A stretch of DNA of 64,000 nt from positions 256,001 through 320,000 of the IMG/VR virus record IMGVR_UViG_3300049988_000286, one strand, 5' to 3'. Each line of letters begins with the position of its first letter. The stretch's first letter is position 1. Below are positions 655 to 48,150 of the stretch, one piece after another. Below the pieces are notes generated by a model that worked only from the letters and a program-made list of their open reading frames with translations, did no database searches and was not told where the DNA came from. The DNA comes from a virus. Lineage: Duplodnaviria; Caudoviricetes. A program made the translations under genes and the position numbers.

Positions 655-1215
655 GTGTGTTCGCTAGCGCTCACACGACCTATGATCACTCATTTGTGTT
701 CAGCAAGCTTCACACAAACAATATGATCAACTGACAATACAGAGATGAGGTCATCATCCTCGGGAAGAATGGAACTTTCTATCCCCCTCCATGACCGATA
801 CGCTTTTACAAGCAGACAATCTCTCGATTGCTCGACCATGGAGGGGGAAAGTAGCATCATCCTGCGGTTGTGAATGGCTCTCGCTGGCAGCTTCGGCGTC
901 TATAGCCTAGCAGGTGGTCGCCCGTGACCCTGCATTACTGCCCTTTCCTGACACCTTTCGGTATCACGACGGTTATCTCATTTGAGAAGCGATACCGCCA
1001 AGCCGCGAATAATTGACCGGGCGGGATCGAAGAGTTGTCGGTTAGACATAGCTCTTCTCTTTACATGTGTCTCTTGTGTCCACCCTTGGTGGGACCGGCA
1101 ACACTCCCCGGTCGGCTACTCCGCCTAACGCCTTCCCGGAACACGGCCCCCTAGAGCGCCTTCAAAGTCCATCGAGCATGTCACTGATCAGGCGCGAGGC
1201 CCTTGAGTAATTTGA
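655..1215 (-). ncRNA. Putative large structured non-coding RNA, family unknown
   Basis: ORF-poor interval with many nested inverted repeats (782-793/837-848, 693-699/712-718, 1093-1098/1108-1113, 1156-1161/1190-1195). Three stems are capped by GNRA loops only when read on the minus strand (GAAA 956-959, GAGA 822-825, GTAA 806-809). A minus-strand TTGACA promoter lies upstream. Confidence 0.55.
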
Positions 1216-1221
1216 GTCCTG

Positions 1222-1250
1222 TTGTAGAATCCTGCTCCGAGTCGTGTCAA
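1222..1250 (-). promoter_or_regulatory. sigma70-type promoter pointing into the structured region
   Basis: TTGACA at 1250-1245, 16-17-nt spacer, then TCTACA/CTACAA. The -35 overlaps the inverted repeat TCAAAT-ac-ATTTGA (1247-1260). Confidence 0.55.
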
Positions 1251-4015: not shown

Positions 4016-4891
4016 TTAGAGGCGCAGCATGGTCTTGATCATCTCCCAGTCGGCGGGATCGAGGGTGACATTGACCACCTGCTCGTCGCCGTCGCCGACC
4101 GTCTCGACCTGATCGGCATCGATCGCGGCCTTGAGGATGTTGGTCATCGCGGCCTTGAGCGACGGGCCGGTGGTGAGGGTCTTGGCGGTCACGCGGGCCT
4201 TGCCGGTGCTCGCCGCCTTCTTCACACCCTCCGCCAGCGCGTCAGCCGTCTTCGAGTCGTCGAAGCCGTTGGCCCGAGCAACCGACAGGGCGGTAGTGGA
4301 CGAAACCGTGCCGTCCTTGATCAGCGCCTTGACCTCGGTGGACAGCCCCGCGATATCGAGAAGCTGGGTGACACGCTGCTTCGACATGCCCGCCCGGTCC
4401 GCGATCTGCTGATCGGTCCAGCCGTGACCCTTGAGGCGCTTGATGACCGACGACTTGCCCAGCGGGGTGAGGGCGAGACCCGAGTTCTCGGTCAGGATGC
4501 CGAGCACCGAGTCGGCGTCGCTCTCGCTGCGGGCGGTCAGCTTGACCGGGATGGTGGCGATCTCCGCGCCGTAGACATCGATCGCCCGGATGGTGGCACG
4601 CAGACGGCACTCACCGTCCTTGAGGAGGAGGCGACCGCCCTTGTTGCGAACGGTGAGGGGACGCTGGATGCCGATCTCGGCGATCGACTTGGCGAGACCG
4701 TCGATGTGCTCGGCGACCTCGGCGGTCTCGAAGTCACGGACGTTGAAGCCGTCCTCGACCTCGATCAGGAGCGGGTTGATCTGGAAGATGTCGCTGCGGC
4801 CCTCGGCAAGCTGCTTGATGCCGCCGGTGCGCTTCGCAGCGAGGGTGGCGAGGTTCTGGCCGAAAGCGGAAGTGGGGGTCAGGCTGGTCAT
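4016..4891 (-). CDS. ParB/Spo0J-like protein
   Basis: FNVRDF...LAKSIAEIGIQRPLTVR...LKDGECRLRA (ParB N-domain) followed by an HTH (WTDQQIADRAGMSKQRVTQLL). Confidence 0.8.
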   Translation of the reverse strand: MTSLTPTSAFGQNLATLAAKRTGGIKQLAEGRSDIFQINPLLIEVEDGFNVRDFETAEVAEHIDGLAKSIAEIGIQRPLTVRNKGGRLLLKDGECRLRATIRAIDVYGAEIATIPVKLTARSESDADSVLGILTENSGLALTPLGKSSVIKRLKGHGWTDQQIADRAGMSKQRVTQLLDIAGLSTEVKALIKDGTVSSTTALSVARANGFDDSKTADALAEGVKKAASTGKARVTAKTLTTGPSLKAAMTNILKAAIDADQVETVGDGDEQVVNVTLDPADWEMIKTMLRL

Positions 4892-10897: not shown

Positions 10898-11611
10898 ATG
10901 CCGTGGCGATTTTCCAAACGTGTTAAGATCATGCCCGGAGTTACTCTAAACTTCGGTAAACGAGGTGTGTCGGCGTCGGTAGGTCCACGCGGCGCAAAGC
11001 TGAACTTTGGATCGAAGGGCGTGAGGGGCTCGGCTAGCATTCCCGGCACGGGCTTGAGCGCATCGACCATGCTCTACGGTCGAAAGAGGAGCCCATCGCC
11101 ACTCGGAACGCTCCTGTCTTCGCGGAAAAGTCCGTCACGCAGATTAGCTGGGTGTGGATCAGTTCTTGTTGGACTGGCGCTGCTTGGCCTTGTGTCAACC
11201 TGTATGCGCGGAGTTTCGTCATCACCAGAAGCTGCGGCGATCGTTGACATGCCAGCGCTTCTCGACGTTTCGGGCAAAGAGGCCCGAAGTGCCTTGGGTG
11301 CACCATCGGAATGCGACGTTTCAAAGAAGGGCGAGACTTGTCGCTATCGCTTCAAGGAGCGAGATGTAGAGCTTTACTTCCAACGCGGTGCGAGTGCGTC
11401 CGTTACGGTCAGCGGAGTAGATGAGCATTTCGGGTCGTCTTCGTTGCCGGTATTCGGAATCAGAGAGCGCACTCTGACCACCGCGACGCCGATCGTCATC
11501 AGAGCAGATACTACGGTGCGAGGCAAGGCCGCAGCAGTGAGCATGTTCCCACGGAAGGATAACCGTGTCGATTACGTCTATCTCAAAAAAGCGACATTGA
11601 ACAAAAAATAA
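10898..11611 (+). CDS. DUF4236-domain membrane protein
   Basis: N-terminal WRFSKRVKIMPGVTLNFGKRGVSASVGPRG...SIPGTGLS is typical of DUF4236; then a TM and a C-terminal extracytoplasmic domain. Confidence 0.75.
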   Translation: MPWRFSKRVKIMPGVTLNFGKRGVSASVGPRGAKLNFGSKGVRGSASIPGTGLSASTMLYGRKRSPSPLGTLLSSRKSPSRRLAGCGSVLVGLALLGLVSTCMRGVSSSPEAAAIVDMPALLDVSGKEARSALGAPSECDVSKKGETCRYRFKERDVELYFQRGASASVTVSGVDEHFGSSSLPVFGIRERTLTTATPIVIRADTTVRGKAAAVSMFPRKDNRVDYVYLKKATLNKK

Positions 11612-11644
11612 TTGTTGACACCCGCGACGCCCTGTGACTAAATA
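11604..11644 (+). promoter_or_regulatory. Promoter region of the tRNA cluster (TTGACA plus late TAAATA)
   Basis: TTGACA 11615-11620 with UP element; TAAATA 11639-11644. Confidence 0.65.
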
Positions 11645-11811
11645 AGTGCATGTCCACGATGACTCTCTCGACGCGAAAGCGCAAACGCCTCTAAAAGAGA
11701 GCCGCCATGCTGCGCGCTCTCGAAGCAGCCAGCGTGGGAGAGACGATCAGAGATCGTCGGTGTGACAATTCCCAGATTTTGCGCTGTGCTGCTCCCCAGA
11801 GAGGGTTGAGT

Positions 11812-11886
11812 AGGCCATTAGCTACAATTGGTCAGAGCGGCGGTCTCTTAAATCGCGGGTTGTGGGTTCGAGTCCCACATGGCCTA
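11812..11886 (+). tRNA. tRNA-Lys(CTT), no encoded CCA, acceptor stem extended to 21 bp
   Basis: Cloverleaf: acceptor AGGCCAT/ATGGCCT, anticodon arm GCGGT-ctCTTaa-ATCGC, T arm GTGGG-TTCGAGT-CCCAC. Confidence 0.8.
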
Positions 11887-11909
11887 CTCAACCCTCTCTC
11901 TACTTTGAT

Positions 11910-11986
11910 GGGTCCGTAGTTCAATAGGTTCAGAACAACCGGTTCTTACCCGGTATGTCCCCGTTCGAGTCGGGGCGGACTCACCA
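11910..11986 (+). tRNA. tRNA-Lys(CTT)
   Basis: Acceptor GGGTCCG/CGGACTC plus ACCA; anticodon arm ACCGG-ttCTTac-CCGGT; T loop TTCGAGT. Confidence 0.85.
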
Positions 11987-11998
11987 TCTCATCTTTGT

Positions 11999-12075
11999 GG
12001 GCGCATAGTTCAATAGGTCCAGAACAACCGGTTTTTACCCGGTATGTCTCCGTTCGAGTCGGAGTGCGCTTACCA
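11999..12075 (+). tRNA. tRNA-Lys(TTT)
   Basis: Acceptor GGGCGCA/TGCGCTT plus ACCA; anticodon arm ACCGG-ttTTTac-CCGGT; near-duplicate of 11910-11986. Confidence 0.85.
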
Positions 12076-12106
12076 TCACGCGCAAACGCCTATATGGACC
12101 CTTCCC

Positions 12107-12277
12107 ATGACCGACCCCACCATCCCCGACCTCTCCCTCCTCACCCTTGACCTAGAGATCGACCCGGAGGGCGACTCCGACTATCTCCGCGTCACGCTCC
12201 GCTACGATGGCGAGACCCTGACCAGCGATTCGGTGCAGTTGCCGAGACGGCGTGACTCCGCGTCGTACTACTACTAA
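12107..12277 (+). CDS. Small acidic hypothetical protein
   Basis: MTDPTIPDL... directly after the tRNA cluster. Confidence 0.55.
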   Translation: MTDPTIPDLSLLTLDLEIDPEGDSDYLRVTLRYDGETLTSDSVQLPRRRDSASYYY

Positions 12278-12282
12278 CAGTC

Positions 12283-34730: not shown

Positions 34731-35846
34731 ATGCCCAAGAATTTCAGTTTCGATCCACCACCCGCTCCCGTCCCCGCTCCGGTCGCCTTTGCGCCGCCGA
34801 TTCAGGCCACGCCGATTCAGGTCGCACCCGCCCCCACCGCTGCGACCGCCATCGCGGTACCGCAGGGTAGCACCGACCTGTCGGTCCTGACCGGTCGTCC
34901 CGGCAAGGCGCTCACCATGGAGGAGATCGGTAACTACGGTGGTCGCGCGCAGGGGCAGCTTGCCTCGGTGACCGACAAGATTACCGGCGTCGCCAAGACC
35001 AGCGACATGGACGAGGTGGGCAAGCTGCTCACCGACACCATCATGGCGGCGAAGGGCTACGATCCCTCGAACCTGTTCAAGAAGGGCTTCATGAGCTTCT
35101 TCAAGGGCAAGGCCACCCAGATGCAGATGAAGTTTGATTCCGTCGATTCGACGGTCAATCGGCTCGTCGGCGAGATCGACAAGCGGATCAACCTGTTCCG
35201 CTCGCGCATCGGCGATCTCGAACAACTCGCCATCCAGAACCGCGCCTTCCATGACTCGCTCGACGACGAGATCGCCGGGGTGAACGAACGCGCCGACTGG
35301 ATGGAGGCCAACCTTCCCGAGGTCGATCCCGCTGACCCCATGTCGGCCACCACGCGCAACCAGTGGATCACGGTCGTCAACTTTGCGCGCAAGCGTGCCG
35401 ACGATCTCCGCCGCGCGCAGGTGCTGGCGCAGCAGCAGCAGGCGCAGATCAGCCAGATGGCCGACAACTCCGGCGCGCTGGTGATGACGTTCGCCGACAT
35501 CAAGCAGACCACCGTCCCCGCGATGAAAACGACCTTCTCCCTCTATGTGCTGAACATGGAGCAGAAGTCGGGCGCGGAGTTCGCCACGATGACCAAGGAC
35601 TTGAACGACGATGTGATCAAGCGCAACGCGGCGCTGCTGGGTCAGAACACGACCCTGATCAACACGGCGCTCACCCGGTCGAACGTGTCGTTGGAAGCCC
35701 TACAGGCGAACCACGACTCCGTGATCAAGAGCCTCGAAGAAGTCGAGCGCATCCGCACGGAAATGAAGACGCGCATCGCCGCCGAAGCGCCACGTCTGGA
35801 ACAACTTAGTTCGGACTTGACAAAGCGGCTGGCGCAGAAGAAGTAA
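34731..35846 (+). CDS. telA: Toxic anion resistance protein TelA/KlaB family
   Basis: Pro-rich N-terminus, then MDEVGKLLTD...FDSVDSTVNRL and TTVPAMK...AEFATMTKDLNDDVIKRNA helical pattern; first gene of the Ter cluster. Confidence 0.75.
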   Translation: MPKNFSFDPPPAPVPAPVAFAPPIQATPIQVAPAPTAATAIAVPQGSTDLSVLTGRPGKALTMEEIGNYGGRAQGQLASVTDKITGVAKTSDMDEVGKLLTDTIMAAKGYDPSNLFKKGFMSFFKGKATQMQMKFDSVDSTVNRLVGEIDKRINLFRSRIGDLEQLAIQNRAFHDSLDDEIAGVNERADWMEANLPEVDPADPMSATTRNQWITVVNFARKRADDLRRAQVLAQQQQAQISQMADNSGALVMTFADIKQTTVPAMKTTFSLYVLNMEQKSGAEFATMTKDLNDDVIKRNAALLGQNTTLINTALTRSNVSLEALQANHDSVIKSLEEVERIRTEMKTRIAAEAPRLEQLSSDLTKRLAQKK

Positions 35847-36654: not shown

Positions 36655-37740
36655 TTGGATAATCATATGGAAACGCTGAACAAATACTACCGATGGTCCT
36701 TCATCTTCGCGATCGTCGCCCTCTTCGCCGGGGCGGGTATCGGCTGGCAGCAGGGCGGTCTCCCGAGCGCGCTCTCGGTTGCCCTCACGGTTGCGATCCT
36801 CGCCGTGCTGGAAACCAGCCTGTCCTTCGACAACGCGGTGGTCAACGCCAAGATTCTCTCCAACTGGGATCATCGCTGGCAGCAAATCTTCCTCACGTGG
36901 GGGATTTGGATCGCGGTGTTCGGTATGCGGATCGTCTTCCCGATCGCTATCGTGTCCGTCGCGACCGGTATCGCGCCCTTCTACTTCCCCGGCTGGTTCG
37001 GTATGGATCAGAATGTGCTCTCGCTCGCACTGTTCGCACCCGAGCAGTACGCGGAGCAGTTGCGCAGCGTCCATCACGAGGTCGCGGGTTTCGGTGGTGC
37101 GTTCCTCTTCATGGTCGCGTTCGGTTTCTTCTTCGCGGAAAAGCACGTCTATTGGCTCGAAGCCATCGAGACGCGCCTCACCAAGCTGGGGCAGATCGAG
37201 GGTGTGTCGGCAGCGCTGACGCTCATCATTCTGCTCGTCGTCTCCAAGCTGTTCGACAACGCGGAGGAGGGCACGCAGTTCTTCATCTCGGGAGTCTGGG
37301 GCGTGGTGACCTTCATCCTCGCACATGGTCTGGGCTCGGTGCTCGGTGGCGAGGGTGACGAAACGGGCGAGAAGATCGTTCGTGCTGGACTGGCGGGCTT
37401 CCTCTATCTCGAAATCCTCGATGCCAGCTTCTCGTTCGACGGCGTGATCGGTGCGTTCGTGCTCACCAATTATCTGCCCGTGATCGCGCTCGGTCTTGGT
37501 GTTGGTGCGTTCTTCGTCCGCTCCATGACTATCCATCTGGTCGAGAACGGCACGCTCGCCGAGTATCGTTACCTCGAACATGGTGCCTTTTACGCAATCT
37601 TCGCCCTCGCCGTCTTGATGTTCGGCAGCGGCGTGGGCTATGAGCTTCCCGAGTGGGCGACGGGGCTCATCGGCGCTGCCTTCATCGGCGTCGCCTTCAT
37701 CAACTCGCTCTCCTACAACCGCAAGAATGGGAACGCATAA
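36655..37740 (+). CDS. DUF475 (TerC-like) integral membrane protein
   Basis: VLETSLSFDNAVVNA, WGIWIAVFGMRIVFP, YLEILDASFSFDGVIGAF, YRYLEHGAFYAI. Confidence 0.9.
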   Translation: MDNHMETLNKYYRWSFIFAIVALFAGAGIGWQQGGLPSALSVALTVAILAVLETSLSFDNAVVNAKILSNWDHRWQQIFLTWGIWIAVFGMRIVFPIAIVSVATGIAPFYFPGWFGMDQNVLSLALFAPEQYAEQLRSVHHEVAGFGGAFLFMVAFGFFFAEKHVYWLEAIETRLTKLGQIEGVSAALTLIILLVVSKLFDNAEEGTQFFISGVWGVVTFILAHGLGSVLGGEGDETGEKIVRAGLAGFLYLEILDASFSFDGVIGAFVLTNYLPVIALGLGVGAFFVRSMTIHLVENGTLAEYRYLEHGAFYAIFALAVLMFGSGVGYELPEWATGLIGAAFIGVAFINSLSYNRKNGNA

Positions 37741-47088: not shown

Positions 47089-48150
47089 ATGAAGTCTAAC
47101 ATCTATATTTCGCGCAAGGTTCTCAACAAGCAGGACATTATTGACTACGCCACGGATTGTGGTTTCACATCGATGATGCCCGCCGATAGTCTCCACGTAA
47201 CTGTCGTCTATTGTAAGCGCGAAGTTGACTGGAACATCGTTGATCGTGACCAGCCCGAAATGCTCATCATCGAGAGTGCCGAGGACGAGAGCGAGCGGTC
47301 GATCCACAACTTTGACGGTGGGGCTTGCGTCCTAGAGATTACCTGCCCGGAATTACAGGAACGCAACGATGCGCTCCGGGAGCAGGGCATCCATTCCAAG
47401 TTCCCCGATTATCGTGCGCACATCACCCTCACGTACAAGAAACCGAAGAAGATGTCGGTCAAGAAGATCAAGCCCTACATGGGTGCGATCGTGCTCGGAC
47501 CGGAGATCATCGCGCCCGCGAGTTCTGGATGGCAAGAGGAATACAAGGAGGTCAAGCTGATGAAAAGAGAAGTGATCAAAGAGGCTCGTCTCGACGATCT
47601 TGACATCGATGCCACCTATGAGGTTTTTCGTTCCAGCTATGAATCCACGACTGGGCAGTCATGGACTCGCGAGAAGTTTGAAGATCGCGCCCGCAACTGG
47701 ACTTTCTACGGGGACGCGACAGGTTTCGTGGCCTTCCGCGAACAGGCCAGTGGGATGCGTAAACTCGTCGGTGTCGCCGGGGATACCAGCGGCGTCGTCA
47801 TCGGCCTGAAACAACTCGTTGATGAGGGTAAGCCGACATGGGGTGCAGTGAGCGAGAAGATCGCCCGCGCGGCCAAGCGCTTCGGTTTCATCGCCCCCCA
47901 CACCTACCTCGGTGGGGCGCTGGTGATGCGGCTGATCATGAAAGCCATTCCGGCGAGTGTCTTTGGTGGGGTGAAGCCGGAAGTCAATGGCAAGGGTGGC
48001 GTCACCCTCTCGTATGAGGATTTGGGCGAGCAGACGAAGTTTTTCATCGCGAACAAGGCCTACTTCGGTGAACTACTCAACAATCCCTCGTTCTCCGAGC
48101 ATGTCCAGAACCCGGTCGTGAAGAAATTTATCGAGGCGGTTTTGAAATAA
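47089..48150 (+). CDS. 2H phosphoesterase (T4 57B/Acb1-like) fused to an unknown C-terminal domain
   Basis: SLHVTVVY and YRAHITLTY (two HxT motifs), VLEI...ELQER, IVLGPE; a second ~185-aa domain follows. Confidence 0.7.
   Translation: MKSNIYISRKVLNKQDIIDYATDCGFTSMMPADSLHVTVVYCKREVDWNIVDRDQPEMLIIESAEDESERSIHNFDGGACVLEITCPELQERNDALREQGIHSKFPDYRAHITLTYKKPKKMSVKKIKPYMGAIVLGPEIIAPASSGWQEEYKEVKLMKREVIKEARLDDLDIDATYEVFRSSYESTTGQSWTREKFEDRARNWTFYGDATGFVAFREQASGMRKLVGVAGDTSGVVIGLKQLVDEGKPTWGAVSEKIARAAKRFGFIAPHTYLGGALVMRLIMKAIPASVFGGVKPEVNGKGGVTLSYEDLGEQTKFFIANKAYFGELLNNPSFSEHVQNPVVKKFIEAVLK

Follow-up and report, generated by a model that had tools for sequence, protein, structure and literature searches.

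A probable large non-coding RNA of a family outside Rfam, carried in four copies by a phage and singly by bacterial defence islands

We find that a phage genome very probably carries, on the minus strand from position 1214 to about 655 of the DNA analysed here, the gene of a large folded non-coding RNA whose family is not in Rfam. The DNA in question, hereafter the window, is a stretch of 64,000 nucleotides (positions 256,001 to 320,000) of an IMG/VR virus record of 499,572 bp that is rated complete. The RNA is predicted to be roughly 470–560 nt long, and between 655 and 1250 no open reading frame (ORF) of either strand exceeds 56 codons. An initial annotation, made from the letters of the DNA, had placed here a large functional RNA that might represent a new class, and the absence of any Rfam match, strong covariation and the lack of a coding signal bear this out. 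Its description of the region as the longest gene-free stretch of the window holds roughly, a tRNA-bearing gap at 11611–12281 being equally long when ORFs of at least 90 aa are counted. The coordinates of the gene, its copies and its elements are collected in Table 1.

Table 1. Copies of the gene in the phage record (record coordinates, C1) and elements of the present copy (window positions).
Feature	Position	Strand	Remarks
Gene copy	C1:103834-104300	+	
Gene copy	C1:257250-256779	-	present window
Gene copy	C1:338217-338679	+	
Gene copy	C1:471084-470605	-	
-35 box TTGACA	1245-1250	-	(near-)invariant at the 5' edge in the four phage copies and contig L137
-10-like box TACAAC	1221-1226	-	18 nt past the -35 box; conserved in copies c1-c3
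Conserved core	750-1214	-	about 465 nt; nhmmer aligns the four phage copies and all homologs over this span
5' domain	1114-1211	-	closed by a long-range helix, UACUC (about 1205-1209) with GAGUA (about 1115-1119)
Hairpin GACCGG/CCGGUC with conserved loop	1093-1113	-	covaries: GCGG/CCGC in L153, CUGG/CCAG in L139
Purine-rich helix GAAGAG/CUCUUC around AUGUC...GACA	1029-1057	-	compensatory changes in 5 of 6 pairs
Invariant single-stranded GAUAACCGU	969-977	-	nine bases invariant in the 13 sequences examined
GAAA-capped hairpin	950-965	-	3' of GAUAACCGU; covaries
Three-way junction	887-941	-	most conserved element; hairpin GGGUC-NCGGGN-GACC, then ACC, then hairpin GC-UAUARAC-GC
3' arm	751-863	-	long hairpin with arms 836-847 and 783-794 and a variable tip
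Direct repeat AGGAUGAUG flanking the long 3' hairpin	R1 855-863, R2 752-760	-	
Non-conserved 3' tail	655-749	-	two hairpins, 683-729 and 655-676

BLAST followed by nhmmer finds exactly four paralogous copies in the phage genome, all of full length (E = 1e-124 to 5e-137). They are 57–68% identical over the aligned gene and 71–73% over the BLAST-aligned core, lose their similarity about 470 nt in and have unrelated flanks. Spaced 153, 81, 133 and 132 kb apart, the copies alternate in strand, and the genes next to them are mutually unrelated and receive no function from Pfam or PHROGs, so that lysis or holin neighbours and the late holin promoter read into the present locus find no support. The nearest tRNA genes lie 1.6–2.5 kb from copy c2 and 10–18 kb from c1, c3 and c4. 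As a separate observation, two tRNAs with a CUA anticodon (amber suppressors, labelled 'tRNA-Pyl' by ARAGORN) flank c2 at C1:102238 (+) and C1:106351 (-), and TAG may be recoded in part of the phage genome; there are 41 tRNA calls in all, and ARAGORN also calls a permuted tmRNA at C1:15556.

The gene begins with a promoter that is common to its copies. The TTGACA box said to point into the region is present and occupies the same position in all four genomic copies, where the conserved block reads TTGACA, an 18-nt spacer with conserved CGACTCG and GATTC, and then TACAAC; the -10-like box takes variant forms in c4 and in the metagenome contigs L137 and L138. The conserved block GATTCTAC resembles an alphaproteobacterial housekeeping -10 element of the CTANAWC type. 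A generic promoter scan missed TACAAC because it lacks a T at position 6. In the bacterial homologs, separate -35 and -10 boxes occupy the equivalent position, for example TTGACC-17-TATAAA in L163. Judged from the promoter, the RNA would start at about 1213–1214, 7 nt past the -10 box. On the opposite strand, a promoter-like TTGAGT-16-TAGAAT at 1203–1230 (+) overlaps the promoter of the RNA, its TAGAAT being the reverse of the invariant GATTCTA block, and the two sites may be coupled divergent promoters.

At the other end, the conserved part of the RNA stops past the second GA-rich repeat, and about 100 nt past R2 lies a GC-rich hairpin that differs from one phage copy to the next. The non-conserved tail of the present copy ends just past the stop codon (651–653) of a convergent ORF on the other strand (165–653) and is probably the end of the primary transcript; a T-run terminator was looked for at the RNA 3' end and none was found.

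The helices named in the initial annotation are present, at or within one base of where they had been placed: the 12-bp arm, put at 782-793/837-848, lies at 783-794/836-847, and the pairings GAAGAG/CTCTTC around TGTC/GACA (1029–1057) and GACCGG/CCGGTC (1093–1113) are found as described. It had also noticed mismatches that become G-U pairs on the minus strand only. Indeed, several helices have C-A on the plus strand where the minus strand has G-U, as in GACACC/GGTATC at 950–965, a hairpin which on the minus strand is closed by a GAAA loop. The minimum free energy of the minus strand is -226.1 kcal/mol (z = -4.8 against dinucleotide shuffles, 0 of 100 being as good), and the plus-strand fold has z = -2.15.

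Covariation among homologs had been named beforehand as a check on the RNA; homologs were found, and their covariation is strong. Thirteen family sequences are known, several of which form close pairs, and a consensus structure was obtained with RIBOSUM-weighted RNAalifold and scored on an 11-sequence full-length alignment (A3). It comprises 99 pairs in 19 helices, with standard pairs in 88.0% of cells and compensatory changes on both sides in 46 of the 99 pairs, and its covariation score is 0.340 versus 0.183 in column shuffles (0 of 500 shuffles reach the observed value), pairing and covariation figures that lean in favour of the structure since it was derived from the alignment on which it was scored. 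When partners are slid by 1–3 columns, covariation is 0.07–0.15 and 35–50% of cells are paired. Read on the minus strand, alignment A3 contains 113 G-U cells versus 24 A-C cells, and the structure thus belongs to the strand that is transcribed by the conserved promoter; asymmetry and promoter together back the minus-strand reading of the initial annotation.

The helices that score best are those of the three-way junction, the purine-rich helix at 1029–1057, the GAAA-capped hairpin, the long 3' arm and the long-range helix closing the 5' domain. The 5' domain, whose closing helix has compensatory changes in 3 of 4 pairs over 12 sequences, encloses a variable hairpin and the invariant AUGGACUUUG (1163–1172) and GCCGUGUUCCGGG (1135–1147). 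In the three-way junction 100% of cells are paired and 6 pairs show compensatory changes, and the long hairpin of the 3' arm has such changes in 10 of its 16 pairs. The direct repeats R1 and R2 that flank this hairpin change in step: the sequence is GGGAAUGACC twice in L153 and UUGCAG, a Watson-Crick palindrome, twice in L163, and in L139 and L141 the two are non-identical yet Watson-Crick complementary (UGGU/ACCA). All variants can pair antiparallel, by Watson-Crick pairs in some and elsewhere by tandem sheared G-A pairs around A-U or U-U. Since R1 and R2 covary and stay pairable, they most likely form the closing helix of the 3' arm, in the present copy through tandem sheared G-A pairs. Palindromic repeats would also allow pairing between molecules, and palindromic or quasi-palindromic motifs, the only hints of a cage-like assembly of the ROOL/GOLLD kind, occur both in R1/R2 and in the UAUA of the invariant loop. 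The variable parts of the RNA are hairpin tips, not single-stranded guides.

The RNA is under purifying selection. Contigs of close strains from leaf metagenomes show no difference over 916–1228 (run X2) and 964–1148 (run X3), and the same contigs have 13–22 differences (2–3%) in the flanking ORFs. The one trace at the RNA level comes from a soil RNA library (run X18), in which a 151-nt contig has 49 bases identical to window 890–938. Its flanks are unlike the phage yet conform to the consensus of the family, the upstream hairpin being capped by GCAA and the closing helix compensated. It hints that a distant family member is expressed, a hint and not proof because RNA libraries can contain contaminating DNA. 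Of the words sampled from the present stretch, next to none occurred in the metatranscriptomes of the study of run X2.

A protein-coding gene is out: there is no conserved ORF, no codon periodicity (variable columns are even across the three codon positions, p = 0.79) and no preference for indels in threes, 46 of 232 gap runs having a length that is a multiple of three. This agrees with the expectation, set out before the analysis, that a functional RNA should lack a conserved coding signal. No long ORF appears under code 11, under TAG=Q or under code 4, the latter two having been checked because the phage has two CUA-anticodon tRNAs.

Homologs were sought with a pattern of 23 bases that represents the three-way junction, the best conserved part of the RNA. 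The pattern led to L137 and L138 and to five bacterial genomes, namely Qipengyuania vulgaris, Pelagerythrobacter marinus, Sphingomonas panaciterrae, a Sphingomonadaceae MAG and an alphaproteobacterial MAG; a second pattern gave one 17.5-kb IMG/VR contig, and a covariance model of the 3' domain gave a more divergent member in a sixth genome. The nhmmer alignment of all homologs covers essentially the whole length of the RNA. Bacterial genomes have one copy each, and in samples of Sphingomonadales 1 of 151 and 3 of 151 genomes gave a match, query genomes included; hence the RNA is rare and patchy, as expected for mobile DNA. GenBank phages contain no homolog of the RNA and no close DNA relative, the 72,556 plasmids of PLSDB give no match to the RNA, and pattern scans of IMG/VR returned mostly chance matches, bar one true homolog. 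The phage is T4-like in having a gp15 tail sheath stabiliser, and this gp15-like tail protein has one distant relative in IMG/VR. Phage sequence occurs in leaf and phyllosphere metagenomes, a habitat that fits a Sphingomonas-type host, and the hosts of the phage are probably Sphingomonadales. Among the carriers of the RNA, Sphingomonas panaciterrae KCTC 42346, Qipengyuania vulgaris DSM 17792 and Pelagerythrobacter marinus H32 are cultured.

The bacterial copies sit in variable defence islands. Of the seven bacterial or IMG/VR loci, six have genes for restriction or DNA modification in the vicinity of the RNA: type I restriction (L140, L153), type ISP restriction (L157), an MmeI-type enzyme with a Schlafen-like ATPase and a helicase (L143), GIY-YIG with a C5 methylase (L141) and a T5orf172-domain, GIY-YIG-like protein (L142), several loci also having an HTH-Dam methylase; in the seventh, L163, there is a Schlafen-like ATPase and the RNA lies between two integrase genes. 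Six of these loci (L139/L157, L140, L141, L142, L153 and L163) also encode a small serine recombinase (Resolvase plus HTH_7, about 180 aa) no more than about 1.5 kb from the RNA, divergently upstream in five and downstream in one. Spacing and orientation of the RNA relative to the recombinase vary, and the intervening genes are unrelated between loci. Two copies on long contigs (L140, L142) are about 3 kb from a chromosomal tRNA-Thr gene, and these neighbours, or the integrases in L163, mark the loci as chromosomal islands. The Qipengyuania vulgaris contig L157 has perfect terminal inverted repeats of 1,122 nt (1–1122 and 10981–12102), each with a recombinase gene, which bracket 9.9 kb holding the RNA, a DUF6626 gene and the type ISP restriction enzyme; the bracketed segment could be an invertible or composite element.

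Phage and islands were compared for a protein that might go with the RNA. A conserved protein partner was not recovered, all-against-all BLASTP of the neighbouring ORFs giving pairs from close relatives only. When all ORFs of the islands and of the other homolog contigs were run against the phage by tblastn, no homolog of an island protein appeared; the matches are the RNA itself, core metabolic genes from beyond the islands, and one ORF beside c2 that also occurs in L137, a phage-like contig. The upstream ORF common to c2 and L137 has no other relative among 5.8 billion proteins. The phage encodes no resolvase, which rejects that protein as a general partner, yet the recombinase link in six of seven bacterial loci means that the RNA could have a partner there after all.

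Searches for known families gave nothing at this locus. At gathering thresholds, Rfam finds in the whole window only three tRNAs (11812–12072); over positions 500–1450 with E up to 10 the best match is sul1, at 24 bits versus a threshold of 36 and on the wrong strand; and the seven homolog loci give no match at gathering thresholds and one chance miRNA match at E up to 1. The families of Rfam 15, including ROOL, GOLLD, OLE, HEARO, raiA, RNase P, tmRNA, 6S and the group I and II introns, are thus not matched at gathering or permissive thresholds, the outcome that the initial annotation had singled out as bearing on novelty. ARAGORN finds no tRNA or tmRNA gene in 400–1500. Full-text searches of the literature turned up no description of such an RNA.

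The closest comparison is with ROOL and GOLLD, phage and prophage RNAs that have no known partner protein and form RNA-only nanocages (PMC12286853). Like these, the present RNA has several hundred nucleotides, many helices and conserved loops and junctions, is carried by phage or mobile DNA and has no known partner protein. Unlike these, it matches neither Rfam model, occurs in four copies per phage, lies apart from tRNA clusters in c1, c3 and c4 though not in c2, which sits between two CUA-anticodon tRNAs, and is found in Alphaproteobacteria in defence islands beside a serine recombinase rather than in recognisable prophages. It resembles OLE, raiA and HEARO, the omega RNA of IscB, in size and complexity and in having its own gene. 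OLE and raiA differ in belonging to the chromosomes of Firmicutes and Actinobacteria. HEARO adjoins its IscB nuclease and carries a guide, whereas the present RNA has neither an adjacent nuclease nor a guide-like variable segment, and a guide RNA of the omega, tracrRNA or bridge type was rejected, a Pfam scan of the flanking ORFs giving no TnpB, IscB, Cas or IS110-type gene. The CAGGAUG-like repeat recalls the CsrA-binding repeat of CsrB/RsmZ-type sponges, but unlike those the RNA has only two such repeats and only two or three exposed GGA motifs. A CsrB-type sponge was rejected, with no CsrA (PF02599) above the Pfam cut-off in the phage or in four carrier genomes; a better account of the repeats is that they pair with each other as a single G-A-rich helix.

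How might such an RNA work? Host RNA polymerase would transcribe it from a promoter of the housekeeping type, and so probably early in infection, with the four phage copies giving a high dosage. Since phage and islands have only the RNA in common, it would act in trans as a folded particle and need no protein encoded by the element; it would then either have some conserved component of the host as partner or substrate or operate by itself, perhaps assembled into a homo-oligomer as ROOL and GOLLD are. Only its company in defence islands suggests a role in conflict, and our guess is that it serves the conflict of mobile elements, rival phages and host, where it could decoy or modulate a host machine or a DNA-restriction-type defence. 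Taken jointly, a new RNA gene, transcribed by the host polymerase, acting in trans without an element protein and serving conflict, is our best explanation, and we regard it as about evenly poised between right and wrong. More speculative, and in our judgement unlikely, is that it is a protein-independent RNA machine common to phages and defence islands, acting in their arms race and possibly forming a higher-order particle. If true, defence and counter-defence would have a new layer made of RNA only, for instance one that blocks or redirects restriction-type defences or rival phages.

To our knowledge, few large and intricately folded RNAs of bacteria and phages exist in the record, and those found so far have all been either core machines or puzzles of long standing (RNase P, tmRNA, self-splicing introns, OLE, GOLLD, ROOL, HEARO, raiA). 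The present RNA combines strong covariation with stretches in which a phage and distant bacterial islands agree in every base. It is also easier to approach than ROOL and GOLLD, with cultured carriers and with telling company (restriction systems, a serine recombinase, four copies in a giant phage), and thus offers a direct experimental route to the role of large RNAs of mobile elements.

Several other functions have to be weighed against this best explanation. The first, which we consider unlikely, makes the RNA specifically a modulator that tunes or delays the restriction systems of the islands and that the phage has captured and amplified as a counter-defence decoy. The restriction and modification genes at six of seven island loci and the four phage copies fit it, and it has precedents in the known phage RNAs that mimic defence RNAs, in the cases of the ToxI antitoxin and of anti-CRISPR repeats. 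The restriction types differ between loci, however, so that a single molecular target is hard to name, and the company may merely reflect that the RNA rides in defence islands.

We think it distinctly unlikely that the RNA is a ribozyme which processes itself or acts on RNA or DNA of the host. Its size, the many invariant unpaired junction nucleotides (in GAUAACCGU and the junction at 887–941) and the missing partner protein would suit catalysis, but it matches no ribozyme or intron family of Rfam, and neither a conserved cleavage-site signature nor a processing product was seen. Being a ribozyme would overlap with our best explanation and does not exclude it.

Very improbable, to our minds, is a replication-primer or R-loop origin RNA of the ColE1 RNA II or T4 oriF/oriG type, which would remain bound to its template as a primer for DNA synthesis and by which the phage would have four origins and the islands would replicate after excision. 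Like ColE1 RNA II and the origin transcripts of T4, the present RNA is structured, has about 500 nt, is led by a promoter and lies on mobile DNA, and it would require host enzymes only; the host-type promoter, the lack of an encoded partner, the spread of four copies over the genome on alternating strands, the T4-like character of the phage (gp15), the G-rich 3' arm and the neighbouring resolvase of the bacterial copies, which could resolve multimers, all speak for this function. Unlike those transcripts, it has no plasmid homolog and its bacterial copies are chromosomal: nothing in PLSDB matches, and the copies on long contigs are near a tRNA-Thr gene (L140, L142) or between integrases (L163), which rejects a primer RNA of the ColE1 type. 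Moreover, the cumulative GC skew is flat, with no turn at three of the four copies. The conservation far exceeds what priming needs, and the invariant loops and junctions, among them 49 bases that are unchanged in a distant homolog, are more in keeping with specific recognition than with an R-loop.

A similarly small probability attaches to an RNA tied to the serine recombinase, as guide, cofactor or structured site for the inversion or resolution of islands, by analogy with IS110 bridge RNAs. The Resolvase plus HTH_7 gene close by in six loci and the inverted recombinase regions that bracket RNA and cargo in L157 argue for such a tie. Against it, the phage keeps four selected copies and has no resolvase, spacing and orientation vary with unrelated genes in between, and no region of the RNA varies as a guide would.

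Hardly credible, finally, is a messenger or translated element in which a Shine-Dalgarno-like run and the AUG at 1029–1057 (-) would yield a micro-peptide or a site for ribosome loading: the GAGGAG-like run does lie 4–6 nt ahead of an invariant AUG, and in 9 of 13 members a stop follows in frame after 2–4 codons in spite of varying loop lengths (5, 6, 8 and 9 nt), but both run and AUG are inside covarying helices, c1, L138 and L163 have long and unrelated frames, and codon periodicity is absent. This AUG is also the start of the 23-codon ORF noticed earlier, which exists in the present copy, is peculiar to it and is not conserved.

Elsewhere in the window, three tandem tRNA-Lys genes (tRNAs by Rfam, Lys by ARAGORN) lie at 11812–12072 (+), and a ParB-like protein with ParB HTH and N-terminal domains is encoded at 4016–4891 (-). 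TelA-like and TerC/DUF475-like genes, for membrane proteins of the tellurite-resistance type, are at 34731–35846 (+) and 36655–37740 (+), and an ORF at 47089–48150 (+) has an Acb1 anti-CBASS domain (Pfam E = 1.9e-28).
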